64,000 bases of DNA from Candidatus Wildermuthbacteria bacterium (GTDB lineage Bacteria; Patescibacteriota; Minisyncoccia; Minisyncoccales; UBA10102): positions 42,749 through 106,748 of the forward strand of contig JACOZJ010000003.1 in NCBI GenBank assembly GCA_016181405.1, given 5' to 3'. Positions 2,940 through 58,069 of the stretch are shown one piece after another. A model generated the notes under the pieces. It had not been told where the DNA came from and did no database searches. It saw nothing but the letters and a program-made list of their open reading frames with translations. A program made the translations under genes and the position numbers. Positions within the stretch are counted from its first letter, which is position 1. The number at the start of each line of letters is the position of its first letter.

Positions 2940-2985
2940 GTCTCCATATAGCTTCTATACGGCATTTGTTGTAGAATAAACAAAT

Positions 2986-4122
2986 ATGGGTTTTGGATTT
3001 TTGAGTTTTGCACCGAAAAAAGGGAACAATGTTCTCGTTTTGCGCGTGGGAGAACGCGAAGTTGATTTTTTATTGTTTAAAAACGCCGGAGAAGGGATAC
3101 GTGTCCTGGCATATGGAAGTGAAGACACTTCGCATTTTCATATAGGGCAGGTATTAGAAAAAATTTTTGCGCAGCTCCCGCGAGAAGAACGTATTCACGA
3201 GCTTCGGGTAACATTTGGAACAAGTTCTTTTAGGGCGCAAGTAATAACGTTGACTCTTCCCCCCAAAACGCCTTCGCACGTTTTCGATGACGGCGAGGCG
3301 TCTTTGATTGAGAAGGAAGTCCGCGCGCGCGCGGCGCGCGCGCTCCAACGCAGTTTATTCCGAGAATCGGGTATCCTGCCCAATGAATTTTCTCTGCGCA
3401 GGGTAAAAATCCTCGGGCGGAGAATTGCCGGGTATTCTGTCCCCAAACTCGCAGGTGCCATAAGCAGAGAGCTTGAGTTTTCGCTCCTTGGAGTATTTTT
3501 GTTGGAATCCGCGTTTGTTCCTATGCGAGAATTCGCCAAAACCCATAGGATAGCCGAGATGAGTGTGATTCATATTGCGGAGGCTTTGGAATCTTTCGCT
3601 CGAAAATCCGGTCGGGAGGGCGTATATCTTTGCATGGGAGAAGAGAGAACTCAAATTGCCGTTCAAACGAAAGATCGCTTTGCGTTTCTTGGTACAGTTT
3701 CTATGGGTGCACAAAGCTTTACCGAGTTTTTTGCCGATCGTTTAGGGATGAGAGAATCTACGGCCCGTGTTTTCCAGCAGCAATACTTTGAGAACAGTCT
3801 TTCTGTGGGAGTACAGGAGAAAATGCAAGCGTATCTGTTGCCCGAAATCCAGAAGTTTGGTACATTGATAAAGCAAAAACTTTTGGAAGCAAAGATTGTG
3901 TTGCCGGGATCTTTATGGGTATTTGGAAGAGGGGATGTTCTACGGAATCTCCAAAGTTTGTTTGCACATGAGACGCTGGAGGATCTTCCGTTTTCCCAAA
4001 AACCGAAGATAAGTTTTCTATTGCCTGAAGATGTTTGGGGCGCCAAAAATTTTCCAGGGGCGCGCAATCCTTTTTATACCGAGCTTTGTTTGTTGAGCGC
4101 TTTTACATTAAATCGGCGATGA
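2986..4122 (+). CDS. Hypothetical protein (an FtsA/PilM actin-like fold is only a weak guess)
   Basis: 378-aa ORF, translationally coupled (ATGA overlap) to the next gene. No motif that I can name with confidence. Confidence 0.55.
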   Translation: MGFGFLSFAPKKGNNVLVLRVGEREVDFLLFKNAGEGIRVLAYGSEDTSHFHIGQVLEKIFAQLPREERIHELRVTFGTSSFRAQVITLTLPPKTPSHVFDDGEASLIEKEVRARAARALQRSLFRESGILPNEFSLRRVKILGRRIAGYSVPKLAGAISRELEFSLLGVFLLESAFVPMREFAKTHRIAEMSVIHIAEALESFARKSGREGVYLCMGEERTQIAVQTKDRFAFLGTVSMGAQSFTEFFADRLGMRESTARVFQQQYFENSLSVGVQEKMQAYLLPEIQKFGTLIKQKLLEAKIVLPGSLWVFGRGDVLRNLQSLFAHETLEDLPFSQKPKISFLLPEDVWGAKNFPGARNPFYTELCLLSAFTLNRR

Positions 4123-42685: not shown

Positions 42686-44287
42686 TTAATGGATTTCCTC
42701 TTTTTTCTCGCGAAGGAAACTTCGCCATTGCTCCAAGAATTCTACGAACATCTGGAATGGCGCTTCAATAAGGAAATTGAGTACGAGGACAAGCACATTG
42801 TACCGAACTATCTGCCCTGAAAGCCATCGCCCAACCTGAATCATGGGCAAAGAGAAAATGTCAAACACGTTGTACAGAAACCCCTCTTTAACAGATTCTA
42901 CCATTAGTTCGCGCGCCTGCTGGCGAATTTTGGTTCCGGCAAAAAGCACAAGTGACATAAACATCAAGAAGATAAGCATAGAAAAAGGTGAAAATTCGAG
43001 TTTTTGCAAAATCCATATGAGTGCGCCAAAAGAAATGATAAAACTGAAAAGATAAAACACATAAACTGTGCTCGCCCCAAGTCCGGCTCGTTTGCGTGGC
43101 GGAAAAATGTTATGCGGTTCTTGACTGCCGCGCACCTGAATAATCTTTACGACTTCCATCATCACGCGCTCAAAATTGCGTTGCGTGCTTGTCCGCACAG
43201 TGGTAACCAAACCAAACAGTACAATAGCAGGAACCGCAACGCTCAAACCAATCGCAAGATAATTAAGCTCCGCCTGCAAATATCGATCCACTGGGATTTC
43301 AATTGCGAGCGCAATGAGTATTTTTGTGATAAATATTGATAAAATACTGTAAAAAGCCGCCCGGCCAATACGCCTTCGCAATCTCGCATGGCGCTTATCA
43401 TACGCGTGTCGAATGGCCTCTTCCAAAGCAGGGGGATCATTCGCGAGCTGTTCGAAACGGTCTGTATCGTCACTTAGTATATCGTGTAAAATAAGATAAG
43501 GAGTATCGTATTTCTCCGCAAGCTGGTAAAAACGCTCGCCATACGGGTGGGAAATGATTTTCTCAACATTCTCGCGCAAAGTATCAAGATTCTCCGCGAC
43601 ATAAGTAAGCGTTTCCTGTGATGGAGTTTTCCAATCCGGATAAAACTTTTCGAGGATATGGTAAGCAATGCTAAAATTATCGAGTTTAAACAATGTCTTC
43701 TGCACGGCCACATAAATCTGCAGCCTCTTTTCGCCTTCCTCGAGCGGCCTTTCAAGATCGCGTTTCCGGGCAACCAGATTTATGCTTTTCTCCAAGTCTT
43801 CGGTCATTAACTCGATAAGGGCGCGCTCACGCCGCGGGGCAGAAAGCGCCTCTTCAATTTCCACCGCGGCTATGGAAAGAATCCAATCGGCAGAATTCCT
43901 CCCTCCATTCTGCTGTCCATTTCGCGAATGCTCAGCAATAAATATGTATTTCTCGATAACGGCCTGAATCTCGTCAACCTGCTTAAATGAAATCCTCTTG
44001 TTTGGGAAATGTCCTCCGCGCACAAGCTCGGCAAGAAAATTCTCTGCAAAGCCTTCGCTTACCTTATGTATAGCAAGCCGGCGTTTGAGAATACGTTCAA
44101 TTGCGGTCTTCCGAAGCAAGTGTTCGGCTCTCCAATCCACGATTTCCCGAAGCTTTTCATAAAATAAAGCTACGCGCGCCACGACCTCATCCACAGAGAT
44201 TACCTCCTCTTCTTGCCGAATTTGAGCCCTTTCTTTCCACAATTCATATTCTGCAATAAGTTTTTGTACGCCCGGAGAAATTACCAT
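42686..44287 (-). CDS. Hypothetical integral membrane protein (helical N-terminal domain, about 5 C-terminal TM helices)
   Basis: 533-aa ORF overlapping the thrS stop by 7 nt. No motif that I can name. Confidence 0.6.
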   Translation of the reverse strand: MVISPGVQKLIAEYELWKERAQIRQEEEVISVDEVVARVALFYEKLREIVDWRAEHLLRKTAIERILKRRLAIHKVSEGFAENFLAELVRGGHFPNKRISFKQVDEIQAVIEKYIFIAEHSRNGQQNGGRNSADWILSIAAVEIEEALSAPRRERALIELMTEDLEKSINLVARKRDLERPLEEGEKRLQIYVAVQKTLFKLDNFSIAYHILEKFYPDWKTPSQETLTYVAENLDTLRENVEKIISHPYGERFYQLAEKYDTPYLILHDILSDDTDRFEQLANDPPALEEAIRHAYDKRHARLRRRIGRAAFYSILSIFITKILIALAIEIPVDRYLQAELNYLAIGLSVAVPAIVLFGLVTTVRTSTQRNFERVMMEVVKIIQVRGSQEPHNIFPPRKRAGLGASTVYVFYLFSFIISFGALIWILQKLEFSPFSMLIFLMFMSLVLFAGTKIRQQARELMVESVKEGFLYNVFDIFSLPMIQVGRWLSGQIVRYNVLVLVLNFLIEAPFQMFVEFLEQWRSFLREKKEEIH

Positions 44288-46086
44288 ATACGTATGTGAG
44301 TTTTTTGAACAAACGCTTCAAGTTTCATTGCACCAAGGTCACCCTTGCCGCGTTCGCGCACGCTTATTTCATGGTTACTCATTTCTTTTTCTCCAACTAT
44401 GAGTGAATAGGGTATTTTCATTGTTTCACCTTCCCGAATTCGTTTGCCCAGCGTTTCGTTTTCGCCGTTCATGCGAATACGAAAATCTTTATCTGCGGCC
44501 AGAAGTTTTTGCTGAACCTCTTGCGCGTAGCCCGCAAATTTATCCGATACCGGTAAAATCCAAATCTGTTCGGGCGCTAGCCAAAAAGGAAAGGCACCAG
44601 CGTAGTGTTCAATCAAAAACGCAATAAACCGCTCGTGGGAACCAAGAGGAGCTCGATGTATAACATACAAAGGTTTTTCTGAGCCATCCTTATCGCGATA
44701 CGTGAGATTAAACCGTTCTGTCGCAAGAAAATCAAGCTGGTTAGTGGAAGCTGTCTCTTCGCGGCCAATAACGCTTTTAATTTGGAAATCAACTTTCGGC
44801 CCATAGAACGCGGCTTCACCTTCAGCTTCCTGGTAGGGGAGTCCTGATTTTTTCATCGCGCTTCTGATAATTTCAACAGCCTCTTTCCACGCTTTTGGAA
44901 CCCCGGCATACTTTTTCTTGTCTTTTGCCGGCAGCGAAAGCCGCATATAAAAATTTTCAATTCCAAATACTTTTTTGTACCAAAATTCGTGTAGCTGCAT
45001 TACTTTAAGGAACTCTTCTTCTGCCTGTTCTTTGGTGCAATAGATGTGGGCATCGTTTTGCGTAAATCCGCGCACACGCAAAAGCCCAGCTAGGGTGCCG
45101 GAAAGTTCATACCGATATACAGTGCCAAATTCCGCGTAGCGCAATGGCAGTTCACGATAACTATGAGGTTCTGCCCTGTAAATCATATGAGTATGCGGGC
45201 AATTCATGGCCTTCAAATAGTATTTGCCGTCGTCCAATTCCATCGGAGGATACATACTATCTGCATAGTAGGGGATATGCCCAGACATTTTATACAGGGC
45301 TTCCTTCGCGATATGGGGAGTGGTAACGCGCTGATACCCCCATTCTCGCTCTATTTGTTTTGCGCATTTCTCAATTTCTTCGCGGATAATCGTCCCATTT
45401 GGCAGCCAAAGAGGCAATCCAGGCCCAACTTCTGGGGCGAATGTAAATAGCTTGAGTTTTTCTCCAAGCACGCGATGATCCCGTTTTTTTGCTTCTTCTT
45501 GCCGCCAAAGGTAATCATCGAGTTCCTTCTTAGTGGCAAAAGCCGCCCCATACACGCGGGTAAGCATAGGATTTTTTTCATCACCTCGCCAGTAAGCTCC
45601 AGCAACGCTTGTAAGCTTGAAAGCATCAAGCGGCAATTCGCGCGTATTTTTTACGTGCCCGCCGCGGCACAAATCCAAAAACACGTCGCCGGTATATACC
45701 ATACCTACCTTCAAAAATTTTGGATTTTGGATTTTGGATTTTGAGCTTTGCGCTTTGGATTTTACGAGATCTCGGATGAGCTCGAGCTTATACGGCTGTT
45801 TCAGTTTCTTGTAGTGCAACGTTGCCTTAGGCGCTGGCCACAGTTCCCTTTTGAAAGCCAAGTTTTGTTTTGCGATAAAGCGCATTTCTTCTTCGATTTT
45901 GGCCAAATCCGCCTCGGTAATTTTGAGTTTTCCGAAATCATAATAAAACCCGTTTTCAATCACGGGCCCAATTCCCAATTCCACCTTGGGATAGAGCTTT
46001 TTCACGGCCGCCGCGAGCACATGCGCGAACGAGTGCCGCATATTTTCTATAGCTTCTCTGGAACTTTTCGAAGGAATGTCTGCCAT
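44281..46086 (-). CDS. thrS: Threonyl-tRNA synthetase (no N-terminal TGS domain)
   Basis: ...HSFAHVLAAAVKKLYP...CRGGHV...HRAPLGSHERFIAFLIEH...; ATG at 46086. Confidence 0.93.
   Translation of the reverse strand: MADIPSKSSREAIENMRHSFAHVLAAAVKKLYPKVELGIGPVIENGFYYDFGKLKITEADLAKIEEEMRFIAKQNLAFKRELWPAPKATLHYKKLKQPYKLELIRDLVKSKAQSSKSKIQNPKFLKVGMVYTGDVFLDLCRGGHVKNTRELPLDAFKLTSVAGAYWRGDEKNPMLTRVYGAAFATKKELDDYLWRQEEAKKRDHRVLGEKLKLFTFAPEVGPGLPLWLPNGTIIREEIEKCAKQIEREWGYQRVTTPHIAKEALYKMSGHIPYYADSMYPPMELDDGKYYLKAMNCPHTHMIYRAEPHSYRELPLRYAEFGTVYRYELSGTLAGLLRVRGFTQNDAHIYCTKEQAEEEFLKVMQLHEFWYKKVFGIENFYMRLSLPAKDKKKYAGVPKAWKEAVEIIRSAMKKSGLPYQEAEGEAAFYGPKVDFQIKSVIGREETASTNQLDFLATERFNLTYRDKDGSEKPLYVIHRAPLGSHERFIAFLIEHYAGAFPFWLAPEQIWILPVSDKFAGYAQEVQQKLLAADKDFRIRMNGENETLGKRIREGETMKIPYSLIVGEKEMSNHEISVRERGKGDLGAMKLEAFVQKTHIRIW
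45718..45764. repeat. Short repeat family B inside thrS (tttggattttggattttggattttgagctttgcgctttggatttt); encodes KSKAQSSKSKIQNPK on the minus strand
   Basis: 29 of 31 nt match 50671-50700. Includes a TTTTGGA x3 tandem. Confidence 0.75.
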
Positions 46087-46260
46087 AGCCAATTGACTAG
46101 TTATACCACAAAACAAAAACCCCCTCAACAGGGAAGTACCCCAAGCGCTTAAGCCACGGAAAAGTTTGACTTTTTATCGGTAGCGTGTTAGTGTATCGCC
46201 AGCACTTGCTGGTGGGAAAACCCTTAAATTGTATAGCCAGCAAGAAGGAAGGTGGTTCCG

Positions 46261-46545
46261 ATGTCAAAGAAATTCCTGGTAATCTTGGCGCTCGTAGCCG
46301 TCCTGGCGGCCGTATTGGTTCTTCCAGGACAGGGAGCCGACGCACGGCAGAAGCGTTCGGCCTTCCAGGTGACCTCGGTAGGGATACAGCGCTCTGACAC
46401 GGGCACATGGCTAGAGAGCCACGTTGATCTGAATGTGCTGTCCATCCGGATACGGCCGGCCGCAAACCAGGATGGAGTCGCGGTCACTATCGTAGACACG
46501 TCGGGAAACGTCGTCTACGACGGAACGCCAGGCACCAAGAACTAG
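46261..46545 (+). CDS. Hypothetical small secreted protein (94 aa)
   Basis: AGGAAGGTGG SD; MSKKFLVILALVAVLAAVLVLPGQGA is a signal-like N-terminus. Confidence 0.65.
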   Translation: MSKKFLVILALVAVLAAVLVLPGQGADARQKRSAFQVTSVGIQRSDTGTWLESHVDLNVLSIRIRPAANQDGVAVTIVDTSGNVVYDGTPGTKN

Positions 46546-46584
46546 CTCCAGCGCCCTGTAGTAGAAGCACCTAATACCCAGAAA

Positions 46585-46829
46585 CGGGCAGGGCAGGCGA
46601 CGAGAAGTCCAAACCTTCTTTCGCCTGCTCACTCTCATTGAGTGCATCAAGGAATTGGTGGATTCAACAGGAGTTCCAGTACTTTTAAATACACATCCGC
46701 CGCTTCATAGCGGCGAAACGGACATTACCGCAGAAACGCTTAAAACAATTGATTGAAAGAAGTGAAAACGAGTAGTAGTGTTCGTCTCGCCGCTATGGAG
46801 CAGGCAATCTCTCTAAGGAGAAGACATCT
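46585..46829 (+). promoter_or_regulatory. Structured intergenic RNA module, copy 1
   Basis: Stem-loop 46585-46628. Local GCCGC-TTCATA-GCGGC hairpin. CATAGCGGCGA (46706-16) is complementary to TCGCCGCTATG (46787-97). Homologous to the copies at 54346 and 55091. Confidence 0.6.
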
Positions 46830-46871
46830 ATGGAGAACAAATTTGTGGATTTTTATAGAAACAAAACCTGA
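46830..46871 (+). CDS. Possible 13-aa micro-ORF (MENKFVDFYRNKT) downstream of module copy 1
   Basis: AAGGAG SD 8 nt upstream. The stop lies inside the terminator stem. It may not be translated. Confidence 0.25.
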   Translation: MENKFVDFYRNKT

Positions 46872-46893
46872 CAGTTGCTGTCAGGTTTTGTTT
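46863..46893. terminator. Bidirectional terminator aaaacctgacag-ttg-ctgtcaggtttt shared with dnaE
   Basis: Perfect 12-bp stem flanked by A-run and T-run. Confidence 0.75.
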
Positions 46894-50011: not shown

Positions 50012-50614
50012 ATGCAGAAAATTATCGTTGGCATAGATGAAGCTGGTCGAGGCCCTCTTGCGGGCCCGGTGGTGGCAGCAGCGTTTTGCGTGGTGGGAAA
50101 ACCGAAATTTCGGGCGATAGGGGATTTCGACTCCAAAAAACTCACACCCCAATGGCGGGAAGATTTATATCAAGTTTTTACCTCTCATCCGCAAATAGAA
50201 TGGGGGATAGGGCAAGTTTCAGAAAAACAAATAGACAAGATAAACATTCTCCAGGCAACCCGCCTTGCCATGAAAAAGGCGTTTTACGGGTTGTTTCGAA
50301 AACTGCAAAACAAGGGAGTAACACCAAATCTTCTCATTGTGGATGGAACATCTCTTCTTGATATTCCCATATCCCAAAAAGCGATTCCGAAGGCAGATGC
50401 CACGATATTTCCATGTATGGCGGCTTCCATTATTGCCAAAGTTACCCGCGACCGCCTTATGCTCAAACTTCACGAAAGATATCCTGTCTATGGCTTTGAT
50501 CGTCATAAAGGATATGGAACCAAATTTCATCTACAAGCGCTGGCGCGATTTGGACCCTGTACAATCCATAGAAAAAGCTTTTCACCAATCTCCGATGTCT
50601 TAAAATCCAAATGA
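50012..50614 (+). CDS. rnhB: Ribonuclease HII
   Basis: ...VGIDEAGRGPLAGPVVAAA...DSKKLT... Confidence 0.92.
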   Translation: MQKIIVGIDEAGRGPLAGPVVAAAFCVVGKPKFRAIGDFDSKKLTPQWREDLYQVFTSHPQIEWGIGQVSEKQIDKINILQATRLAMKKAFYGLFRKLQNKGVTPNLLIVDGTSLLDIPISQKAIPKADATIFPCMAASIIAKVTRDRLMLKLHERYPVYGFDRHKGYGTKFHLQALARFGPCTIHRKSFSPISDVLKSK

Positions 50615-50700
50615 CAAAATCCAAATTCCAAAATAAATTACAAATACAAATATATAAATTCAAAACCTGTTTTGGATTTTGAGCTTTGAGTTTTGGATTT
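50602..50700. repeat. Repeat family B, intergenic imperfect inverted pair (aaaatccaaa...aaatccaaa / tttggattttgagctttgagttttggattt) around an AT-rich core
   Basis: Read directly from the sequence. The left arm overlaps the rnhB stop codon. Confidence 0.7.
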
Positions 50701-50743
50701 ACACTCTTGCAGAAAATACTCTTTTCTGCTAGAGTAGGGCATT

Positions 50744-51037
50744 ATGGCGGTTCCAAAACAACATCGGTCAAAATCGAGGCAAGGGCAGCGAAGAATGCAT
50801 TTGTTCATCAAGAACCTTAAACTGGTCGCCTGCAAAAAGTGCGGAAAACCAGTTTTGCCGCATACGCTTTGCGAAAACTGCGGAACCTACCGGAGCAAAA
50901 CATTCCTCGACGTCCTTGCGAAACTCACCAAAAAAGAACGGAAGCAGAAACAAAAAGAATTGGCGGCGCAGGAGGAGCATCCGCCAGCTGGCGGACAGTC
51001 GAAGGATTTAAGCGCAGAAGAGTTATCTAAGCGGTAA
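50744..51037 (+). CDS. rpmF: 50S ribosomal protein L32 with a Lys/Glu-rich C-terminal extension
   Basis: MAVPKQHRSKSRQGQRRMH...CKKCGKPVLPHTLCENCG... Confidence 0.9.
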   Translation: MAVPKQHRSKSRQGQRRMHLFIKNLKLVACKKCGKPVLPHTLCENCGTYRSKTFLDVLAKLTKKERKQKQKELAAQEEHPPAGGQSKDLSAEELSKR

Positions 51038-51040
51038 ACC

Positions 51041-51517
51041 ATGGCTAGCCGGCACCTTGCGCGTTCCATAGCAATGCAGTCCTTGTACGAATGGGACTTT
51101 TACGGCAAGCAAAAGGAATTGGCAGAAACGGTAGAACGCAATATCAAAGAGTTTGGTCCGGGACTGGAAGAAGGAAATAAGGACTTCGTGCGGCGGCTCG
51201 CCTTAGGCGTACGTGAAAATCTGCAGTCGCTCAACGCCATTATTGAAAAGGCGGCGCCCGAATGGCCGCTGGATCAAATAACTCTTGTAGACCGTAACGT
51301 ATTGCGCCTTGGCCTTTATGAACTTATCTACGGCAACAAAGAAGAAGTGCCGCCCAAGGTGGCAATTAACGAAGCAATCGAACTCGCGAAAAACTTTAGC
51401 GGCGAGTCCGCGGGCAAATTCGTCAACGGAGTGCTAGGCACCGTATTTCGCGAATTAGAAGCAACGCAATCCACCGAAAGCCCAAGGGGCATTCAGGCGG
51501 ACCCGCCTCAATCCTGA
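51041..51517 (+). CDS. nusB: Transcription antitermination factor NusB
   Basis: ...[17 protein letters not shown]...[12 protein letters not shown]...[10 protein letters not shown]... Confidence 0.88.
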
Positions 51518-51543
51518 GGTTTGGGCGGGCAACAACCACAATT

Positions 51544-52233
51544 ATGAGTTTATCATCACTCGAAAAGGCACTCGACATTTCATTCAAAAATAAAGACTTA
51601 CTCCAGCAAGCATTCGTTCACCGTTCGTATCTCAACGAAAATCGAGACTTCCATCTTCAACACAATGAAAGGCTCGAGTTTCTGGGAGATGCGGTGCTCG
51701 AACTGGTTGTTACCGAATATCTCTACTCAAAGTACCCCGATAAGCCGGAAGGTGAACTTACTGCCTGGCGCGCCGCGCTGGTAAACACCAAAATGCTTTC
51801 TTCCATTGGCAGGGAACTGAACTTTAGCGATTACTTACTGCTCTCGCACGGAGAGTCAAAAGAAGAAGGCAAGGCAAGAGACTATATTCTGGCAAACACG
51901 GTAGAAGCATTCATTGGTGCCTTATTCCTTGACCAGGGCTTGAAAAACTCCGGAAAGTTTATTACAACATATATACTGTCCAAACTTAAAGAAGTGCTGG
52001 AGGACGAACTATTTTTAGACTCAAAATCCCACTTCCAAGAATTAGCGCAGGAAAAAGCGGCCATTACCCCCACGTACATCGTATTAAAGGAATGGGGGCC
52101 TGACCACGCGAAGCATTTTTACATCGGCGTATATCTGGATAAAGAACTGGTGGCACACGGAGAGGGCTCTTCCAAGCAGGAAGCAGAACAAAACGCAGCC
52201 AAAAATGCCCTCGCGGAGAAAAACTGGAAATAG
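51544..52233 (+). CDS. rnc: Ribonuclease III
   Basis: ...NERLEFLGDAVLELVVTEYLY... plus a C-terminal dsRBD (KSHFQELAQ...). Confidence 0.93.
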   Translation: MSLSSLEKALDISFKNKDLLQQAFVHRSYLNENRDFHLQHNERLEFLGDAVLELVVTEYLYSKYPDKPEGELTAWRAALVNTKMLSSIGRELNFSDYLLLSHGESKEEGKARDYILANTVEAFIGALFLDQGLKNSGKFITTYILSKLKEVLEDELFLDSKSHFQELAQEKAAITPTYIVLKEWGPDHAKHFYIGVYLDKELVAHGEGSSKQEAEQNAAKNALAEKNWK

Positions 52234-52241
52234 TAAATATT

Positions 52242-52706
52242 ATGTTAACAATTCGTTTATTTCGCGTAGGAAGGAAAAATCAGCCGGCGTTTAAGATTGT
52301 CGTCTGCAATAAGCAAAACGCCGCTTCAAGGGGACGCTTCGTGGAGGAAGTGGGTTTTTACGATCCCTTAACTAAACAGCGCAACCTAAAAGGGGATAGG
52401 GTAAAATACTGGTTATCCGTAGGCGCAAAAGCTTCTCCCACGGTTCACAATATGCTTGTGACAGATAAAGTGGTGGAAGGCTCCAAAATCGCCAAACACA
52501 AACTCTCCAAGAAGCCTGCCTCGCCAGCAGGGGAGTCTGTAGCGTCTGAAACAAACCAAAGCGGGAAGTCAGCCGATACGGCCCCGGAAGCACCAAAAGC
52601 CCAGGAATCAGCTCCACAAAGCGCTCCTGCTCAAGAAACCACCCCTGAAGCGCCAAAACCCGCTGAAGAGCCTAAGCCTGCCGAAACGCAGGAAAAACAG
52701 CCTTAA
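52242..52706 (+). CDS. rpsP: 30S ribosomal protein S16 with a Pro/Ala/Glu-rich C-terminal extension
   Basis: MLTIRLFRVGRKNQPAFKIVVCNKQNAASRGRFVEEVGFYDP... Confidence 0.93.
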   Translation: MLTIRLFRVGRKNQPAFKIVVCNKQNAASRGRFVEEVGFYDPLTKQRNLKGDRVKYWLSVGAKASPTVHNMLVTDKVVEGSKIAKHKLSKKPASPAGESVASETNQSGKSADTAPEAPKAQESAPQSAPAQETTPEAPKPAEEPKPAETQEKQP

Positions 52707-52770
52707 AGCTCAAACTCCTCAATTCTTGTCCCGCCGTAGCTTTAAGCCAAGGCGGATAGCCTTATACACT

Positions 52771-52795
52771 CCCACCAACCCTTTGGTGGGTTCTT
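52771..52795 (+). terminator. rpsP terminator cccacca-accctt-tggtggg plus TTCTT
   Basis: 7-bp GC stem followed by a short T-run. Confidence 0.5.
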
Positions 52796-52822
52796 GACAT
52801 TTTTGGGGAAGTATGCTATACT
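52794..52822 (+). promoter_or_regulatory. Consensus promoter TTGACA-N17-TATACT
   Basis: Perfect -35 element, 5 of 6 in the -10 element, 17-nt spacer. Confidence 0.65.
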
Positions 52823-53164
52823 GTGGCTAACAATAAAATACTGGTTTTGCGGGTGGAAGGAGAGAGCCACCGGCAAATAATAAAGACACAGACGATTGCA
52901 CATATCACAATTACCCAATCAGCTCTCCCCAAAAGGAGAGTTGGTTGTTTAGAGAATGTCCTGCCTCTGCGAATATAAAGATACTCCCGGAGGTAGCACA
53001 TTCAAAACATCACAGCACCTTAACCATCAAGCAAGGGGGAAGAGGAACAGAAAATTCTTCCCCCATACCCTTCAGCCCACCACGAGTATCGAATGGCGAA
53101 TTGAAGGGTAACGATAGCACCCAAAAATTTCCTTCCTGTAAAGGGAAGGGGAAAGGAGAGAGCC

Positions 53165-53275
53165 ATGGTGCACCGACCTCCACGCCCGGAGACGGTGATG
53201 ACGCTTCCGCTGCCGCGTTGCGGCTGCGGGGCACGCATCGCCCCGGGTGGCTACTGTACTGGAAAGTGCAAGTAG
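53165..53275 (+). CDS. Cys-rich micro-protein (36 aa: MVHRPPRPETVMTLPLPRCGCGARIAPGGYCTGKCK)
   Basis: Translated by hand. GGAAAGGAGAGAG SD 3 nt upstream. CxC...CxxxC pattern. Confidence 0.45.
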   Translation: MVHRPPRPETVMTLPLPRCGCGARIAPGGYCTGKCK

Positions 53276-53283
53276 CCCTCAAC

Positions 53284-53388
53284 GGAGTCGGAGGAAAAGC
53301 ACTCATTGATTGCACTCATAGCATACTCTCCGACTCCTTAAGTTTAAGACCGTTGCGAAAAGCGCAGATCATAGATTTAAGGAGTCGG
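53284..53388 (+). promoter_or_regulatory. Three-segment alternative-hairpin element (1:2 versus 2:3)
   Basis: ggagtcggag (53284-93) pairs with ctccgactcc (53328-37). ccgactccttaa (53330-41) pairs with ttaaggagtcgg (53377-88). The two pairings are mutually exclusive. Confidence 0.5.
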
Positions 53389-53420
53389 ATAGATTGCGCA
53401 CCTTATGAAAGGAGGACGCC

Positions 53421-53606
53421 ATGGAAAGGCTCAATCAATCCCAAATCCGGGCCGCCCATTGGAAGATTGGAGTGAGGGGACCCGTAAACGGGTTACTCAC
53501 TCCAAGGAAACTCGCCCGGGTTTACGGAGTTAGTCCGAGCGAGACAAGAATCATCGTGTTGTCGGTATTCGTGTACCGCGCGCGGGAATGGCTTTGCCCC
53601 CGATGA
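53421..53606 (+). CDS. Small putative helix-turn-helix protein (61 aa)
   Basis: AAAGGAGG SD; ...LTPRKLARVYGVSPSETRIIV... looks like an HTH. Confidence 0.5.
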   Translation: MERLNQSQIRAAHWKIGVRGPVNGLLTPRKLARVYGVSPSETRIIVLSVFVYRAREWLCPR

Positions 53607-53872
53607 GAGCGTGCACAATCCCAGCAACCAAGCCCTGGCCCTGCGAGATCTACCAAGATTTCGCAGGGCACCCCAACTGAATCCCGAATTCATTTCGAGA
53701 TTCAACAGGGGTTAGTACATAAAAATCCATTCGTCTTCAGCGATTTGGCCAAGGCACTTGACTGAATCGTTGGAGACGAGAAGTATGGTGAGATGCGATT
53801 CGTCGAAGACCTCTTCTTGAGTGTCGAAGAACGACAAAGAAAACTCACGAAGAGTGCCAAGAAAGGCAGAAA

Positions 53873-54307
53873 ATGTCTATGTCTATACCGACGATGCTGG
53901 CGGGGCTGGCGGGGCTGGTGGTAGCGGGGATGCTGGTGGGGATGCTGATCTCCATCATCGTATGGACGGATCGGCGCCCGTCGTTCAAGACCGTGTTTGG
54001 TTTCAAGCCTCAGAACCGCAAGAGGCCTTGGTCGTCAGCGCTTCGTGCAGCGGAACAGAAAAAGGTGGCTACTGTGCTGAGTCGGTTAGCACAGACCTTT
54101 GCCACGTGCGACAAGACCGAGAGGGAGATGAAGATTGAACTCCCTGCGGATGGGGAGTTCGAGAAATGGCATACGGAACAGCGTAAACGCCTCGCGGATT
54201 TGAGGCGGGAGCTGAAAACCGCGAAGGAAGGTTTCTGGCGGGCCTATGCGCTCGCCGAGAAACAGGAATTCAGTGTACAGCGGAAGTACACTGACTACCT
54301 CCCCTAG
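53873..54307 (+). CDS. Hypothetical membrane-anchored protein (N-terminal TM helix, charged coiled C-terminus)
   Basis: MSMSIPTMLAGLAGLVVAGMLVGMLISIIVW... Preferred over the overlapping 53821-54138 frame. Confidence 0.55.
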   Translation: MSMSIPTMLAGLAGLVVAGMLVGMLISIIVWTDRRPSFKTVFGFKPQNRKRPWSSALRAAEQKKVATVLSRLAQTFATCDKTEREMKIELPADGEFEKWHTEQRKRLADLRRELKTAKEGFWRAYALAEKQEFSVQRKYTDYLP

Positions 54308-54345
54308 CGCGACCACTAAGTAGAAGGATGCGTCTCACCACGCAT

Positions 54346-54578
54346 TCTGGGCGGGAGAACAAAGGTTCAATCCCTTTCTCTCCCGCCCCCATACTTGAGC
54401 TCATGAATAAGTTCGTGGGCTGAAGAGTGGATAGCACTTTCAAAACTACAGCCGCTTCATAGCGGCGAAATGCCCTTCCGTAGCTTTATGCGAAGGAGGA
54501 CAGCTCGCTGCTATGGAAAGCGGCCTTCCGTAAACCCTCACCCTCAGCAAAAGGAGAGGTAGGAAGAGGAGAACAAGA
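54346..54578 (+). promoter_or_regulatory. Structured intergenic RNA module, copy 2
   Basis: Stem-loop 54346-54389 with a TTCAATC loop followed by CCA. GATAGCACTTTCAAAAC box. CATAGCGGCGA (54458-68) pairs with TCGCTGCTATG (54505-15). Confidence 0.6.
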
Positions 54579-54962
54579 ATGACCATGAAATCTTTCGCGG
54601 CATTGGACTGGACGTTTTCAGGCCCGGCGCGCCGGGTTACTCTCGAGTTCCCGTGCGAGACCCCTGAGGAGGCGCGGGTCCTCCTGCGGGCGGAGCATGA
54701 GGCCCGCAAGGACAAGGCATTGGAGGAAATCAAGGCCCATCCCCGCATGAAGCAGATTGGATGGGCAGGGGATCACGTCACTCCGGTAATGGGGCCCGTG
54801 CCCCCTTGGGAGGATTCCCGGTACCCAGGGTCCCTCTGCGTCGGCATCCCCAACGTGGATGCCGAGGTCGGGGTCCAAGTCGGATCCGGGATGGGAGAGA
54901 CGGACCGGATATACCGCATTGAGGCGGTGCCGGGGGGCGGCACGCGCGCCGTGCGTGTCTGA
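54579..54962 (+). CDS. Hypothetical protein (127 aa)
   Basis: GGAAGAGGAG SD; no recognisable motif. Confidence 0.55.
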   Translation: MTMKSFAALDWTFSGPARRVTLEFPCETPEEARVLLRAEHEARKDKALEEIKAHPRMKQIGWAGDHVTPVMGPVPPWEDSRYPGSLCVGIPNVDAEVGVQVGSGMGETDRIYRIEAVPGGGTRAVRV

Positions 54963-55090
54963 CGCAAGAGAAGACCAGGCTGGGGGTGAAGCCGGCCAAA
55001 AAGAATAGTTTCCCAGTATCATGAAACTGGGGGCGCTGACCACGGCGCCATACAGCAGTGGGAGGTCGTTCTGCCCGAGGCGGAAGGACC

Positions 55091-55366
55091 TAAGGCGAGA
55101 GAGGAAGGTTAATCCCTTTCTCTCCCGCCCCATACTTGAGCTCATGAATAAATTCGTGGGCTGAAGAGTGGATAGCACTTTCAAAACCACAGCTGCTTCA
55201 TAGCGGCGAAATGAACATTTCCGTCTCATCGACGGATATGCCGACGAGGCATAAACCAGAAACGCTCAAGATGCATGAAAGAAATGATTTGGAGTGGAAA
55301 ACAGAGTTAGTGTTCAGCTCGCTGCTATAAAGTGGCAAATCTTGAGCCTGAGAGCAGGAGGAGAAC
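55091..55366 (+). promoter_or_regulatory. Structured intergenic RNA module, copy 3
   Basis: The first ~120 nt are about 95% identical to copy 2. ATAGCGGCGA (55200-09) pairs with TCGCTGCTAT (55319-28). The insert shares blocks with copy 1. Confidence 0.6.
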
Positions 55367-55561
55367 ATGAAAAAAAACGCCTTGTCGACGATCTTCCTAG
55401 TCGGTTTTTCCCTCGTGGGCGCTTTCGGGGGCGCCCTCGGAGGGGTCAGTGTCAGCGCTCTCATTGGTATTAACCCAAACACTGCCGCCCTATGGGGCGG
55501 TATCGTCGGTGCCATCGCTATGACGGCGGTGGCGGTCCTCAGCATCAATAGGTGGAAATAA
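55367..55561 (+). CDS. Glycine-zipper small hydrophobic protein (64 aa)
   Basis: GGAGGAG SD; ...LVGAFGGALGGVSVSALIG...LWGGIVGAIAMTAVAVL... Confidence 0.65.
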   Translation: MKKNALSTIFLVGFSLVGAFGGALGGVSVSALIGINPNTAALWGGIVGAIAMTAVAVLSINRWK

Positions 55562-55591
55562 AACGCAAGGAGATAACCTTTCGTGCAATAA

Positions 55592-55640
55592 GGTAGGGAG
55601 GCGAACGGTTCTATTCCGCTTCCTCCCTACCACTTTCTTG
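55592..55640 (+). terminator. Stem-loop ggtagggagg..cgg-ttctatt-ccg..cctccctacc, same architecture as the module stem-loops
   Basis: 10-bp stem, internal loop, 3 bp and a 7-nt loop, followed by ACTTTCTT. Confidence 0.5.
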
Positions 55641-55731
55641 CGTACAGCTGTGATCTACTCTCTCCTCCGCCTCACCGGCGGATCCATCATAGCTGTACAC
55701 AAGAGAGAAATACTTTTCCACTTCTCAAATA

Positions 55732-55759
55732 TTGACAGGATGGCACGCAGTGCTAGACT
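55732..55759 (+). promoter_or_regulatory. Promoter TTGACA-N16-TAGACT (TG immediately upstream of the -10 region)
   Basis: Read directly from the sequence. The track ORF 55732-55935 begins at the TTG of this -35 box. Confidence 0.55.
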
Positions 55760-55944
55760 ATCCTAATTTCACAGCATGCACCCTCGAACGTGATGCGGAA
55801 ATGGGGGATGGATTGGCAAGGAGTATTGATTCTTTGGCAATCCCGTCCCTGTTTCGTACCACAATTCAGCGGCAGGGAGGAGAGGAGGTACAACTTGAAA
55901 GTCTAAAATACAAATCAACGCGTTCTTTTTCATAAACGAGGAGG

Positions 55945-56097
55945 ATGACGATGCAATCGAATAGAGGGAGAATCCGGGGATGCCTGGGTCAGACCTATGC
56001 CTCTCCGATTCAGCCGAAGCGCTTTCGGCCGCAGCGCCCCCGCGCGTCGCATCGCCGGAAGCCCATCGTCAAGATCATCCTGATCTCCAACACGTAA
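55945..56097 (+). CDS. Highly basic 50-aa protein (MTMQSNRGRIRGCLGQTYASPIQPKRFRPQRPRASHRRKPIVKIILISNT)
   Basis: Translated by hand. GAGGAGG SD. An 11-bp stem hairpin follows at 56121-56157. Confidence 0.45.
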   Translation: MTMQSNRGRIRGCLGQTYASPIQPKRFRPQRPRASHRRKPIVKIILISNT

Positions 56098-56172
56098 CCT
56101 CGTTGGCGCCCGATAACCCCAACAACCCCTCGGATTGTGGTACATCCGAGGGGTTCATCATTTGTGTGGGGG

Positions 56173-56200
56173 TTGACACTATTTTTTGATCGTGTATACT
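56173..56200 (+). promoter_or_regulatory. Consensus promoter TTGACA-N16-TATACT
   Basis: Read directly from the sequence. Confidence 0.6.
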
Positions 56201-56206
56201 CAATCG

Positions 56207-56342
56207 TACATAAATATGAACTCACGCTATCTTTTCTGCATGTGTCTTTGTGCCAGCCCAGAGAAGAGTCTGCGTGTTTCGCGTTAAGACATTTTGTTAT
56301 TTGAAACCAGCCAGCCTCTTCTCTTCAGGGGCTGGTTTTTTG
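56207..56342 (+). ncRNA. Candidate ~135-nt sRNA bracketed by a consensus promoter and a strong terminator (contains an SD-less 23-codon ORF)
   Basis: Promoter at 56173-56200. Terminator aaccagcc...ggctggtt plus TTTTT at 56305-56342. Confidence 0.4.
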
Positions 56343-56419
56343 TAGCTTGGCAGAGACTCAAAACCCATTGTGCGTCTCTGCCAGGAAACAATCCTGGAAT
56401 ACAGAAAGGAGAAAGGGAA

Positions 56420-56740
56420 ATGGCCAGAATAATAGGAGTGTTTGAAGGCCCAACTTCCCTACAGGAAGTCTTCGGCAGAAACGTGCCGAACAGAAGGTCT
56501 TTTGAATCGTACGAAGACCTTCTCAAAGCCCTCAAGGAGGGGCTGCTTGACGGCATCGTCATACCGGAGAATCTCGTCAGCAGAACTTTCGTGGCAGCGC
56601 AAATGGGGTTGATACAGTGCGTGCGTGGATTCGCGTATATCAAGCCGTCGCTCGAGATACGGGTCCGCCGCGCGCGAAGCCGCATGCACGAACGCCGCGC
56701 TTGGCGAGAGTATACGCCGCCCCGGCGCCTTCCCTGTTAA
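56420..56740 (+). CDS. Hypothetical 106-aa protein resembling the N-terminal part of a prephenate-dehydratase or periplasmic-binding-protein type-2 fold (fragment?)
   Basis: AAAGGAGAAAGGG SD; MARIIGVFEGPTSLQEVF...SFESYEDLLKALKEGLLDGIVIPENLVS... Confidence 0.45.
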   Translation: MARIIGVFEGPTSLQEVFGRNVPNRRSFESYEDLLKALKEGLLDGIVIPENLVSRTFVAAQMGLIQCVRGFAYIKPSLEIRVRRARSRMHERRAWREYTPPRRLPC

Positions 56741-56759
56741 CCTGCACCTTACAACGTAG

Positions 56760-56792
56760 AAGCCCCGCCTTTATGGCAGGGGCTTTCTTTTT
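56760..56792 (+). terminator. Intrinsic terminator aagccccgcc-tttat-ggcaggggctt plus TTCTTTTT
   Basis: GC stem with one bulged A, followed by a T-run. Confidence 0.65.
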
Positions 56793-56796
56793 GGGG

Positions 56797-56825
56797 TTGA
56801 CAAACCCGAGAGACAGAAATAACAT
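56797..56825 (+). promoter_or_regulatory. Promoter TTGACA-N17-TAACAT upstream of khpA
   Basis: Read directly from the sequence. Confidence 0.5.
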
Positions 56826-56869
56826 AAAGAAAAGTCGAATAGCAGAAAGTTACAGAATTCAGAATTCAA

Positions 56870-57178
56870 ATGGCAGAAGAGACACCTCAGTACCAAGCAT
56901 TGCTCGAGTATATCGTGAAATCCTTGGTGGACAATCCGAACGACGTAACGGTAGAACGCAAAGTAGATGAAATGGGCGTACTGCTTTCTTTGAAAGTGCA
57001 CGCTCAAGACATGGGTCAAATAGTCGGCCGACAGGGTTCTACCGCGCGAGCAATTCGCACATTGGTTCGCATCGCGGGCCTCAAAGCTCACGCACGGGTA
57101 AACCTCAAGATTGAAGAGCCAGAAGGCGGCCGCGGCCCCCGAAAGAGCGAAGAACCTCTTGCGGGGTTGAACATCTAA
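56870..57178 (+). CDS. khpA: KH-domain RNA-binding protein (KhpA/YlqC, UPF0109)
   Basis: ...LLEYIVKSLVDNPNDVTVERKVDEMGVLLSLKVHAQDMGQIVGRQGSTARAIRTLV... Confidence 0.88.
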   Translation: MAEETPQYQALLEYIVKSLVDNPNDVTVERKVDEMGVLLSLKVHAQDMGQIVGRQGSTARAIRTLVRIAGLKAHARVNLKIEEPEGGRGPRKSEEPLAGLNI

Positions 57179-57243
57179 ACGAAAATTAGAACTTGAAATC
57201 TGCAAGAACGGTGTTACGATAGGGTAATGCCGTTTTTGTTTAT

Positions 57244-57945
57244 ATGAAATTCGATATCATCACCATATTTCCGCAAATTTTTGATTCCTATTTTGCCGAG
57301 TCACTTTTGAAACGCGCCCAAGAAAAAAAACTTCTTGAGATTCGCGTACACAATCTGCGCGATTGGACCGAAGACTCCCACAAAACAGTGGACGACAGCC
57401 CATTCGGCGGGGGATTGGGAATGGTAATGAAAATTGAGCCGATCTACAAGGCCGTAATAGGCCTAAAGTCTCAAGGATCAAACTCCAAGGCCCAAGCAAA
57501 CCCTAAGTTTCCAAACCTCAAACAACGCGTTATCCTTTTCACGCCGAGGGGAAAGAAATTTACGCAACGAAAGGCGCACGAATATGCAAAGCTCGACCAA
57601 CTTATTATGATCTGCGGCCGATACGAGGGAGTCGATGAGAGAGTAGGGAAGTATATTGCAGACGAGCAACTCTCTATAGGGGATTATGACTTAATGGGTG
57701 GGGAGCTTCCTGCAATGATTGTAGTGGAAACTGTTTCGCGCTTAATTCCCGGCGTTATTGGCAAAGAAGAATTTCTGAAAGAGCATATAAAAGATGGGGG
57801 ATTTATAGAATATCCACAGTACACGCGGCCTGAAGTATTTGTGGATGCAAAAAGGAAAAAACGAACTGTACCACAAGTATTGCTATCCGGAAATCACAAA
57901 AAAATTGAAGAGTGGCGGCAAAGACACGAAAAGCTCATCAAATGA
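57244..57945 (+). CDS. trmD: tRNA (guanine37-N1)-methyltransferase
   Basis: MKFDIITIFPQIFDSYF...DDSPFGGGLGMVMK...CGRYEGVDERV... Confidence 0.93.
   Translation: MKFDIITIFPQIFDSYFAESLLKRAQEKKLLEIRVHNLRDWTEDSHKTVDDSPFGGGLGMVMKIEPIYKAVIGLKSQGSNSKAQANPKFPNLKQRVILFTPRGKKFTQRKAHEYAKLDQLIMICGRYEGVDERVGKYIADEQLSIGDYDLMGGELPAMIVVETVSRLIPGVIGKEEFLKEHIKDGGFIEYPQYTRPEVFVDAKRKKRTVPQVLLSGNHKKIEEWRQRHEKLIK
57464..57525. repeat. Possible degenerate family-B-like insertion in trmD (encodes KSQGSNSKAQANPKFPNLKQ)
   Basis: Extra loop relative to the usual TrmD ...AV....VILLSP... spacing. The peptide resembles the thrS insert. DNA similarity is weak. Confidence 0.35.
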
Positions 57946-57986
57946 TTGAAAAATGCGGGAAAACGTGGTAGGATATGCGAGGTAAA

Positions 57987-58069
57987 GCGTGGATGGCAGA
58001 GCGGTCAATTGCATGTGGCTGTAAACCACACGCCTTCGGGCTACGGGGGTTCGAATCCCTCTCCACGCA
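57987..58069 (+). tRNA. tRNA-Tyr (GUA) with long variable arm, CCA not encoded
   Basis: Acceptor GCGUGGA/UCCACGC-A, anticodon loop CUGUAAA, 14-nt variable arm, T-loop UUCGAAU. Confidence 0.9.

Follow-up and report, generated by a model that had tools for sequence, protein, structure and literature searches.

Between the genes rpsP and khpA of a Candidatus Wildermuthbacteria bacterium lies an islet of about 4.1 kb that holds small open reading frames (ORFs) and repeated copies of an RNA module, and this module, we find, is a widespread and previously undescribed structured RNA whose fold has covariation support. The islet occupies positions 52707-56825 (4119 nt) of a stretch of 64,000 nt, referred to throughout as the window (GenBank assembly GCA_016181405.1, contig JACOZJ010000003.1, forward strand positions 42,749 to 106,748). 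The cluster nusB-rnc-rpsP-khpA-trmD is otherwise tight, and the islet, judged by its own sequence and by those of its relatives, is an accessory insert specific to the lineage. The explanation that we prefer, and whose chances we put at about even, is that of a hypervariable small-gene array organised by a BoxA module resembling an rRNA leader, which would act through Nus-dependent antitermination and RNA processing. An initial annotation, made from the letters alone, had described the islet; what it observed is confirmed and its interpretation is partly supported, and the RNA module, which it had noticed, it under-rated as the key, organising feature. The copies of the module, its fragments and its boxes in the window are the following.

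54349-54524, plus strand: RNA module A, with hairpins P1 (54349-54388) and P2 (54389-54430), an unpaired BoxA-like region (54431-54450, box at 54433-54445) and the P3/P4 helix (54451-54524).
55094-55336, plus strand: RNA module B, with P1 (55094-55129), P2 (55130-55171), an unpaired BoxA-like region (55172-55191, box at 55174-55186) and a long P3/P4 domain (55192-55336).
46593-46800, plus strand: RNA module C, diverged, with P1 (46593-46628), a box (46678-46690) and a helix (46706-46797).
52727-52790, plus strand: partial module, comprising a P4-like hairpin at 52727-52760 (79% identity with 54471-54504) and, 3' of it, a second hairpin (52771-52790).
52995-53007, plus strand: BoxA-like box in the array leader, AGCACATTCAAAA, with a position weight matrix (PWM) score of 12.2 that is weak taken alone, and with flanks resembling those of the box at 54433.
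53284-53412, plus strand: degenerate module just before the ORF p61, with P1-like (53284-53338) and P2-like (53321-53397) parts and without the P3/P4 helix.

Modules A and B fold with z scores of -7.8 and -9.1 and are found by nhmmer with E values of 7e-13 and 3.8e-16, respectively, the diverged module C with 1e-16; A and B share a 104-nt stretch (54369-54472 and 55111-55213) that is 97% identical, and the two copies and partial boxes of the initial annotation are thus borne out. The degenerate module forms an inverted repeat, and its hairpin arrangement is kept in the related locus L102 (loci of relatives are designated in this way below), again 3' of the ORF p36. Searched with a profile of all modules, the window yields exactly three copies, and many loci prove to have arrays of several.

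The module is about 180-250 nt long, and the order of its parts is one or two hairpins (P1, P2), about 20 nt of unpaired sequence with a BoxA-like box, and the P3/P4 helix, in which a near-invariant strand, CUUCAUAGCGGCGAARUG, pairs with CAKCUCGYYGCUAUG across a variable insert of 30-110 nt, giving about 22-24 bp with a 2x2 internal loop. At 20-150 nt 3' of each module stand a Shine-Dalgarno sequence and a small ORF that is different each time. The family was collected by fuzzy matching of the core across the relatives' loci, followed by a two-part pattern scan of metagenomes, each core CAUAGCGGCGA having a complementary UCGCYGCUAUG 30-110 nt downstream. Fuzzy matching found further copies only inside the expanded rpsP-khpA spacers of L003, L012, L036 and L051, and the two-part pattern yielded 60 metagenome loci with 45 distinct cores.

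Since the search pattern fixed P3, this part of the helix is unusable as evidence of covariation; the adjoining P4 was free to vary. In P4, 9 of 10 pairs show compensatory changes (for example U-A 24 versus C-G 18, and A-U 22, U-A 11 and C-G 11). Pairing holds in 97.4% of the helix cells, against 28-56% in slid controls, and the observed covariation was reached by none of 500 shuffles. With an unbiased MAFFT alignment of 44 complete modules as input, RNAalifold returned the same 23 pairs and left the box unpaired. P3 itself shows interchange of G-C and G.U, and a natural variant in L036, CAGAG/CUCUG, still pairs. On the coding strand the wobble cells are about 76 G.U and about 14 A.C, and because the former far exceed the latter, the folding molecule is the sense RNA.

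Against Rfam 15, only tRNAs passed the gathering threshold in the window and nothing credible was found at E <= 10 in 52400-57200; known RNAs (giant non-coding RNAs, 6S, RNase P, signal recognition particle RNA, ribozymes and riboswitches) could be set aside on this ground, and no description of the module was found in Rfam or in the searchable literature. Hammerhead ribozymes and kink-turns were rejected by reading, as the required GAAA and G.A pairs are missing. The template and variable repeats of a diversity-generating retroelement were rejected too, because adenines are not where the two copies differ and no reverse transcriptase is present, and so was a tRNA-derived att site, the T-loop-like GGTTCAATCC in P1 not being conserved in other copies. 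Viral contigs gave 14 matches to the core pattern, all of them in coding DNA and due to chance.

The module is specific to one site and one strand. Among the 37 occurrences in loci that include a housekeeping gene, none departs from the operon strand. Placement in the rpsP-khpA spacer fits 36: both flanking genes enclose the module in 13, khpA follows it in 16, and rpsP precedes it in 7. The other occurrence is upstream of nusB. Four long loci are without operon housekeeping genes; one is L135, whose array adjoins thrS/dnaE, and in another, L146, the module stands 0.8 kb upstream of a 16S gene, from which it is parted by an ORF and a promoter. In L146 (6700-6800, minus strand), a consensus promoter and the 16S leader have between them a tiny ORF rich in Lys and Cys, MAAKKKKKNKKHCPCCGCAPCKC. 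The counts bear on the idea that the modules are miniature inverted-repeat transposable elements, of the Correia, repetitive extragenic palindromic (REP) or BOX kind, that have spread, with the ORFs being chance frames in decaying non-coding DNA. Such elements would account for the terminal inverted repeats, the multiple copies per genome, the second locus and the fact that most ORFs lack any homologue, only two being annotated by NCBI; they would not account for a single orientation at essentially one site across many species, for compensatory changes with G.U on one strand, which point to RNA, for the clear purifying selection on p36, or for ORFs that have Shine-Dalgarno sequences and coding-type periodicity of G+C at the three codon positions (GC1, GC2 and GC3). 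We consider this explanation highly improbable.

To place the islet among relatives, one genome per species was scanned via TrmD, rpsP and khpA were placed by tblastn, and metagenome loci were added. Of the 59 rpsP-khpA spacers so obtained, 36 are no longer than about 310 nt (the short ones range from 9 to 310 nt), so that the spacer of 4163 nt found here is an expansion. Other expansions, of 1-5.3 kb, occur in scattered lineages (L012, L016, L036, L051, L058 and many metagenome contigs), and the site is therefore a recurrent hot-spot and not an ancestral gene block. In this survey, modules occur only in the expanded spacers. The synteny comparison that the initial annotation had proposed as a check comes out in its favour, as close relatives carry different content at the site: L003, L111, L116 and L139 have KhpA proteins 98-99% identical, yet different ORFs between conserved modules. 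In L139 (KhpA 98%), module A is matched at 97% identity, but the sequences part just after GCUAUGGAAAGCGGC, where L139 continues into another ORF, and L003 (KhpA 99%) shares the interior of module B (55250-55338, 88% identical to 816-906 of L003), then has 1.2 kb (p100, p173) in place of p64, its homology to the window resuming at 55686. Between near-identical backbones, similarity ends just 3' of the 3' strand of the module. ORF families common to different genomes are rare, nearly all spacer ORFs being unique to a lineage. In other arrays the cargo is mostly uncharacterised, alpha/beta hydrolases turning up now and then and recombinases not at all. In one relative of high G+C (L141, 11012-11487), a pair resembling the HicA/HicB toxin-antitoxin system, as judged by reading the sequences, stands among the module-bearing cassettes.

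Base composition also sets the islet apart. Its G+C content is 0.533 against 0.476 in the rest of the window, which makes it the richest stretch of its size in the window (top 0.7%), where the initial annotation had spoken of a G+C-richer islet, and the proposed GC3 check is likewise atypical, with 0.62-0.78 in the islet ORFs against 0.49 +/- 0.056 in 26 long backbone genes; the ORFs show the coding-like pattern GC1 > GC2 < GC3. None of them has a match in Pfam, PHROGs, PADLOC or NCBIfam. Of the suggestion of an accessory regulatory, toxin or peptide locus, the lineage-specific accessory insert thus stands, while the toxin or regulator roles, for want of a family match, are not supported. No integrase, transposase or att repeat had been seen in the islet, and Pfam, PHROG and repeat searches agree: the window ORFs contain no recombinase domain, the repeat search found no flanking direct repeats at the islet borders, and blastn found no similarity of the islet to phage or plasmid DNA. 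A phage or plasmid origin, a prophage remnant or an integrase-mediated genomic island was rejected on these grounds (no PHROG or Pfam match, no blastn match, no border repeats), as was a defence system, there being no PADLOC match.

The main rival explanation arises from this same variability. It holds that the spacer contains mobile cassettes like those of integrons or of clusters of attC sites lacking integron-integrases (CALINs), in which single-ORF cassettes are inserted and excised at a fixed platform behind a strong promoter, the P3/P4 hairpin being an attC-like DNA site and the recombinase being encoded elsewhere. Like an integron, the array is driven by a strong promoter at its start and consists of mostly ORFan single-gene units in one orientation, each after an imperfect hairpin with conserved ends and a variable centre of 30-110 nt; its content is hypervariable even where the backbones are nearly the same, the break-points falling just 3' of the hairpin, and ORFans with an occasional enzyme such as an alpha/beta hydrolase would be a fitting cargo. 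CALINs have no integrase, so that the absence of an integrase does not by itself exclude one, and the model stays alive because the modules behave as cassette borders. Unlike in an integron, no integrase, attI or R/L cores were found here; no integrase or recombinase is encoded in or beside any of more than 40 arrays, which rpsP and khpA flank directly, and no RYYYAAC/GTTRRRY core was seen, by reading, at the conserved ends CTTCATAGCGGCG...CGCCGCTATG. The wobbles show that the coding strand folds, whereas attC folds on the bottom strand; the cassettes are almost never common to different genomes, they sit at a fixed housekeeping site, and nothing matches phage or plasmid sequences. Nor would the conserved, unpaired BoxA-like box and P2 be explained. 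We therefore regard mobile cassettes as an unlikely explanation.

The box that mobile cassettes leave unexplained is the basis of the preferred one, a module of the rRNA-leader type. Lying between P2 and P3, the box AGUUCUUUGAAAA is at least 90% conserved, though it stood outside the search pattern, and matches 10 of the 11 positions of BoxA, GYUCUUUAANA, the gamma-proteobacterial consensus (GYTCTTTAANA as DNA; PMC5725501). The sole mismatch is G9. A G at position 9 is the state of the Aquifex rrn BoxA, and a purine swap is likely to be tolerated according to structural analysis (PMC3177189). In related Parcubacteria, the 16S-23S spacer of L075 holds a similar box, AAAGUUCUUUGAAAAC, and so do the 16S leaders of L067 (GUACUUUGACAA), L075, L077, L079, L080 and L146 (GAACCUUGAAAAC).

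The layout as a whole recalls an rrn leader, in which boxA is followed by a near-invariant boxC in the 5' strand of a leader-trailer helix of 25-40 bp, the helix showing Watson-Crick and wobble covariation and overlapping an RNase III site (PMC10250234). As in the rrnTAC assembly site of E. coli and other bacteria, the module has, in the same order, a hairpin, a single-stranded near-consensus BoxA and a near-invariant strand, which pairs with a distal partner as the 5' side of a long helix showing Watson-Crick/wobble interchange; folds of the window copies, the RNAalifold consensus and the pair counts all give hairpin, unpaired box and long helix. The 22-24 bp of the helix, with its internal loop, are of a length that suits RNase III, and nusB is present. 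The module differs from an rrn leader in that its helix encloses 30-110 nt and not a 1.5-kb rRNA, in that a Shine-Dalgarno sequence and a small protein gene follow, in the several tandem copies per array, in a boxC-like sequence unrelated to UCUGUGUGGG, and in not standing at rRNA genes. Outside rRNA operons, BoxA shields long untranslated CRISPR arrays from Rho (PMC7665894), and the boxes of CRISPR arrays, suhB and rpsJ described by the Wade laboratory resemble ours in being non-rRNA boxes before a long, poorly translated array. Here, the box is instead part of a larger structured module that is repeated within the array, the host belongs to the candidate phyla radiation (CPR), and the function is putative. 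With lambda nut, put and EAR elements the module has in common that it is an RNA signal acting in cis within a transcription unit, which could make the polymerase resistant to termination; it differs from lambda nut in having the boxB-like hairpin before boxA, as in rrn, and no N or Q, and from put and EAR in the absence of any sequence or structure similarity (no Rfam match).

From the rrn-like layout and from nusB and rnc next door, we infer antitermination by Nus factors and processing by RNase III. The array appears to have grown between rpsP and khpA-trmD, 3' of the strong promoter that stands before khpA in relatives, and the module would be a miniature of an rRNA-operon leader with its boxB, boxA and boxC/leader-trailer helix. 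The box would recruit NusB/NusE, NusB being encoded two genes upstream; RNA polymerase would thereby become resistant to Rho and to hairpin terminators, and transcription would traverse the insert, little of which is translated, and continue towards khpA-trmD. The long helix would be a site of processing or stability, most plausibly for RNase III, encoded one gene upstream. As conserved repeats, the modules might double as break-points for the exchange, duplication and loss of ORF segments.

Several observations weigh against this mechanism. Part of the near-invariance of P3 stems from the search pattern itself. The boxes of the window copies themselves are degenerate (AGCACUUUCAAAA, 9/11), and a BoxA PWM yields comparable scores by chance across the window, so that the BoxA assignment rests on membership in the family. 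The P3 sequence of the module was not found in the rRNA leader of L146, the one module-bearing genome in which this comparison was made. The islet has internal promoters and three good intrinsic terminators, because of which read-through to khpA is perhaps needless, and break-points fixed just 3' of the hairpin also fit site-specific recombination.

One could also propose that the helix serves as a leader controlling translation or stability by binding KhpA, S16 or a nearby RNA-binding protein, which would co-regulate the small ORFs and khpA, the likeness to BoxA being incidental. In keeping with this, the P3 strand and the 2x2 loop are conserved beyond the needs of pairing, in every case a Shine-Dalgarno sequence and start codon follow the module at a distance of 20-150 nt, and the array adjoins the gene of an RNA-binding protein, KhpA. 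The ORFs downstream are, however, unrelated to each other, the helix leaves the Shine-Dalgarno sequence free in the folds of modules A and B, the conservation of P3 is inflated by ascertainment and variants with another P3 exist, and the box fits both the E. coli consensus and the rRNA boxes of the lineage; all told, a protein-binding leader seems improbable to us. The unrelated ORFs and the free Shine-Dalgarno sequence also led us to reject a riboswitch or other ligand-sensing leader.

The genomes of CPR bacteria (Patescibacteria) are tiny yet rich in unique small proteins of unexplained origin and expression. It is conceivable, and we put this forward as a tentative generalisation, that Paceibacteria keep an 'expression cradle' in the leader of the essential khpA-trmD unit, a strongly promoted array, termination-proof by virtue of its repeated BoxA modules, in which new or foreign small ORFs are continually gained, duplicated and lost by recombination at the modules. 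If true, the cradle would work like an integron, though Nus-dependent and free of an integrase, and would supply these symbionts with the lineage-specific micro-proteins that are typical of them. The new structured RNA, which is absent from Rfam and known here in 45 or more sequence variants, marks a single chromosomal hot-spot of gene novelty; the hot-spot would be tied to the Nus/BoxA and RNase III machinery encoded beside it, and BoxA-type control would reach beyond rRNA and CRISPR arrays to protein-coding ones. The module thereby gives a testable handle on the expression of fast-evolving genes in ultra-small symbionts.

Transcription signals inside the islet are unusually dense. Sites with a perfect TTGACA and at least 10 of 12 consensus positions number six in the window, four of them in the islet, at 52794 (11/12), 55732 (10/12), 56173 (11/12) and 56797 (10/12), exactly the four near-consensus promoters that had been named. 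Of the 'at least 5 hairpin terminators' the hairpins are there, but T-tailed terminators on the plus strand of the islet are three only (56124, 56309 and 56767), the remaining hairpins being without T tracts. The outermost signals are the following.

52794-52822, plus strand: rpsP-proximal promoter, TTGACA-N17-TATACT, 11/12.
56762-56825, plus strand: terminator (56767-56783) and khpA-proximal promoter (56797-56825, TTGACA-N17-TAACAT).

The second of these stretches is 97.7% identical in L003. That khpA has a promoter of its own, as had been noted, is correct; that the promoter reflects its being cut off from rpsP is not supported. Uninterrupted short spacers number 36, and in 19 of these, too, khpA is preceded at 75-150 nt by a strong promoter, with a match of 10/12 or better and in many cases of 12/12. 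The khpA promoter is thus, on the comparison of sequences, ancestral and older than the insertion. In expanded spacers, an equally strong promoter, often 12/12, lies 15-90 nt after rpsP, and usually a second one adjoins khpA; the arrays appear to be inserted between the ancestral promoter and khpA. A promoter of consensus grade (TTGACA-N16/17-TATAAT, often 12/12) separates rpsP from khpA in many Paceibacteria, and khpA-trmD is therefore transcribed separately from rpsP there.

The small ORFs listed in the initial annotation all exist, and no housekeeping gene lies among them, only small ORFs without a family match. Six of them are given below.

53165-53275, plus strand: p36, a Cys-rich micro-protein of 36 amino acids (CxC...CxxxC), with an AAGGAG Shine-Dalgarno sequence in front.
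53421-53606, plus strand: p61, an ORFan and putative helix-turn-helix protein that hits only itself among 5.8e9 proteins.
53873-54307, plus strand: p144 (HYT49_01865), an ORFan with an N-terminal membrane anchor (hydropathy peak 2.68).
54579-54962, plus strand: p127, an ORFan at the G+C peak of the islet (0.66, GC3 0.78), not annotated by NCBI.
55367-55561, plus strand: p64, a two-helix glycine-zipper membrane peptide with AGGAGG in front (hydropathy peak 2.06).
56420-56740, plus strand: p106 (HYT49_01870), which hits only itself in the large database of 5.8e9 proteins.

Among these, p36 is a convincing gene because it is conserved in L102 with mostly silent changes. The two ORFs, at the same site, are 86% identical, compared with only 60% for TrmD, and they differ by 17 synonymous and 7 non-synonymous codon differences, the Cys-rich C-terminal 22 residues being invariant across 12 silent changes; p36 is probably a real gene under purifying selection, and it is unannotated. 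The coding-potential check suggested earlier thus favours p36; it goes against p50, a small ORF within the unit E2 described below, which shows no third-position bias. At a nucleotide identity of 80%, p50 retains just 55% at the amino-acid level, a rate of change like that of neutral DNA, and it is doubtful as a gene.

NCBI annotates only p144 and p106, whose locus tags are consecutive. p144 is identical to 'hypothetical protein HYT49_01865 [Candidatus Wildermuthbacteria bacterium]', has no homologue but itself among the 5.8e9 proteins, and is coding-like in its GC1/2/3 of 0.56/0.44/0.72; p127 has no match in 1.84e9 representative proteins and is not on record. Together with p64 and p61, these two have Shine-Dalgarno sequences and coding-type periodicity, and no homologues were found for any of the four. 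The proposal that p61 is a helix-turn-helix regulator is not supported, its self-hit being its only one, and matches of p64 to glycine-zipper families in Pfam are weak and under the cut-off. p106 has a homologue in L139, 45% identical and just upstream of khpA. Among ORFs 3' of modules, 5 of 26 have transmembrane segments, an ordinary proportion that gives no enrichment of membrane proteins. A practical consequence is that small conserved genes such as p36 are missed by annotation.

Two further units precede khpA.

55732-56160, plus strand: E2 unit, promoter to terminator, about 400 nt.
56173-56419, plus strand: p106 leader, with a promoter (56173-56200), an intrinsic terminator (56309-56337) and a hairpin (56346-56387).

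E2 comprises a promoter (55732-55759), a conserved 72-nt hairpin domain (about 55795-55866), BoxA-like boxes (55878-55891 and 55912-55926), the p50 ORF (55945-56097) and a terminator hairpin (56124-56155). It is 80% identical in L003 (2020-2529), and L004 (8998-9420) keeps its 5' hairpin domain and terminator, E2 filling most of a spacer of 635 nt there. Its boxes resemble the rrn-leader type, covariation is small with three sequences, and Rfam has no match. A coding origin of the 5' domain was rejected: the minus-strand ORF has stops in L004, and the plus frame is open, but without third-position bias and across the promoter. E2 may be a resident element, perhaps a non-coding RNA gene, of Wildermuthbacteria spacers. 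The p106 leader is 87% identical to 1797-2040 of L139, compared with only 45% for the p106 protein, and has a possible antiterminator pairing, an inverted repeat, of 56261-56269 with 56317-56325. Since the leader is conserved far more than the protein, this suggests a candidate attenuator or riboregulator.

Elsewhere in the window, module C belongs to a second, smaller islet.

46128-46893, plus strand: second G+C-rich islet between thrS and dnaE, smaller than the rpsP-khpA islet.

It contains a signal-peptide ORF of 97 amino acids (46252-46545), module C, an ORF of 12 amino acids and a bidirectional terminator. Because L135 also has a multi-module array adjoining thrS/dnaE, the thrS-dnaE gap may be a second hot-spot.

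The borders of the islet are as first described, with rpsP ending at 52706, khpA starting at 56870 and trmD next, which Pfam and the relatives confirm. On the left, rpsP (52242-52706; S16, PF00886, E = 4.7e-18), and on the right, khpA (56870-57178; PF13083, E = 2e-20) and trmD (57244-57945, identified via 571 relatives), are all on the plus strand, and rimM is absent between khpA and trmD. Directly upstream of rpsP are nusB (51041-51517, plus strand; TIGR01951, 125 bits) and rnc, encoding RNase III (51544-52233, plus strand; TIGR02191, 247 bits), both over the curated NCBIfam cut-off and two genes and one gene away, respectively. The closest trmD loci are those of metagenome-assembled genomes of Wildermuthbacteria. 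Logan assemblies of two other runs (L001 and L002), from the same organism, reproduce 50611-54441 and 55158-58060 without mismatch and end inside both module copies (54441 and 55158); as they break in modules A and B, the p127 segment, 54442-55157, is without independent confirmation. Short-read assemblies can thus be seen to break at the module.

In the window, which has no rRNA gene, trmD is followed by tRNA-Tyr, tRNA-Thr, rpmG and tRNA-Trp. A 16S rRNA gene lies 1-2.5 kb after trmD in L064, L067, L068, L070, L073, L075, L077, L079 and L080. Finally, a motif, TTTTGGATTT / AAATCCAAA, recurs at 45713-45762, 50603-50700 and 2979-3008; between rnhB and rpmF it makes up an inverted repeat, and the coding region of thrS holds it too.

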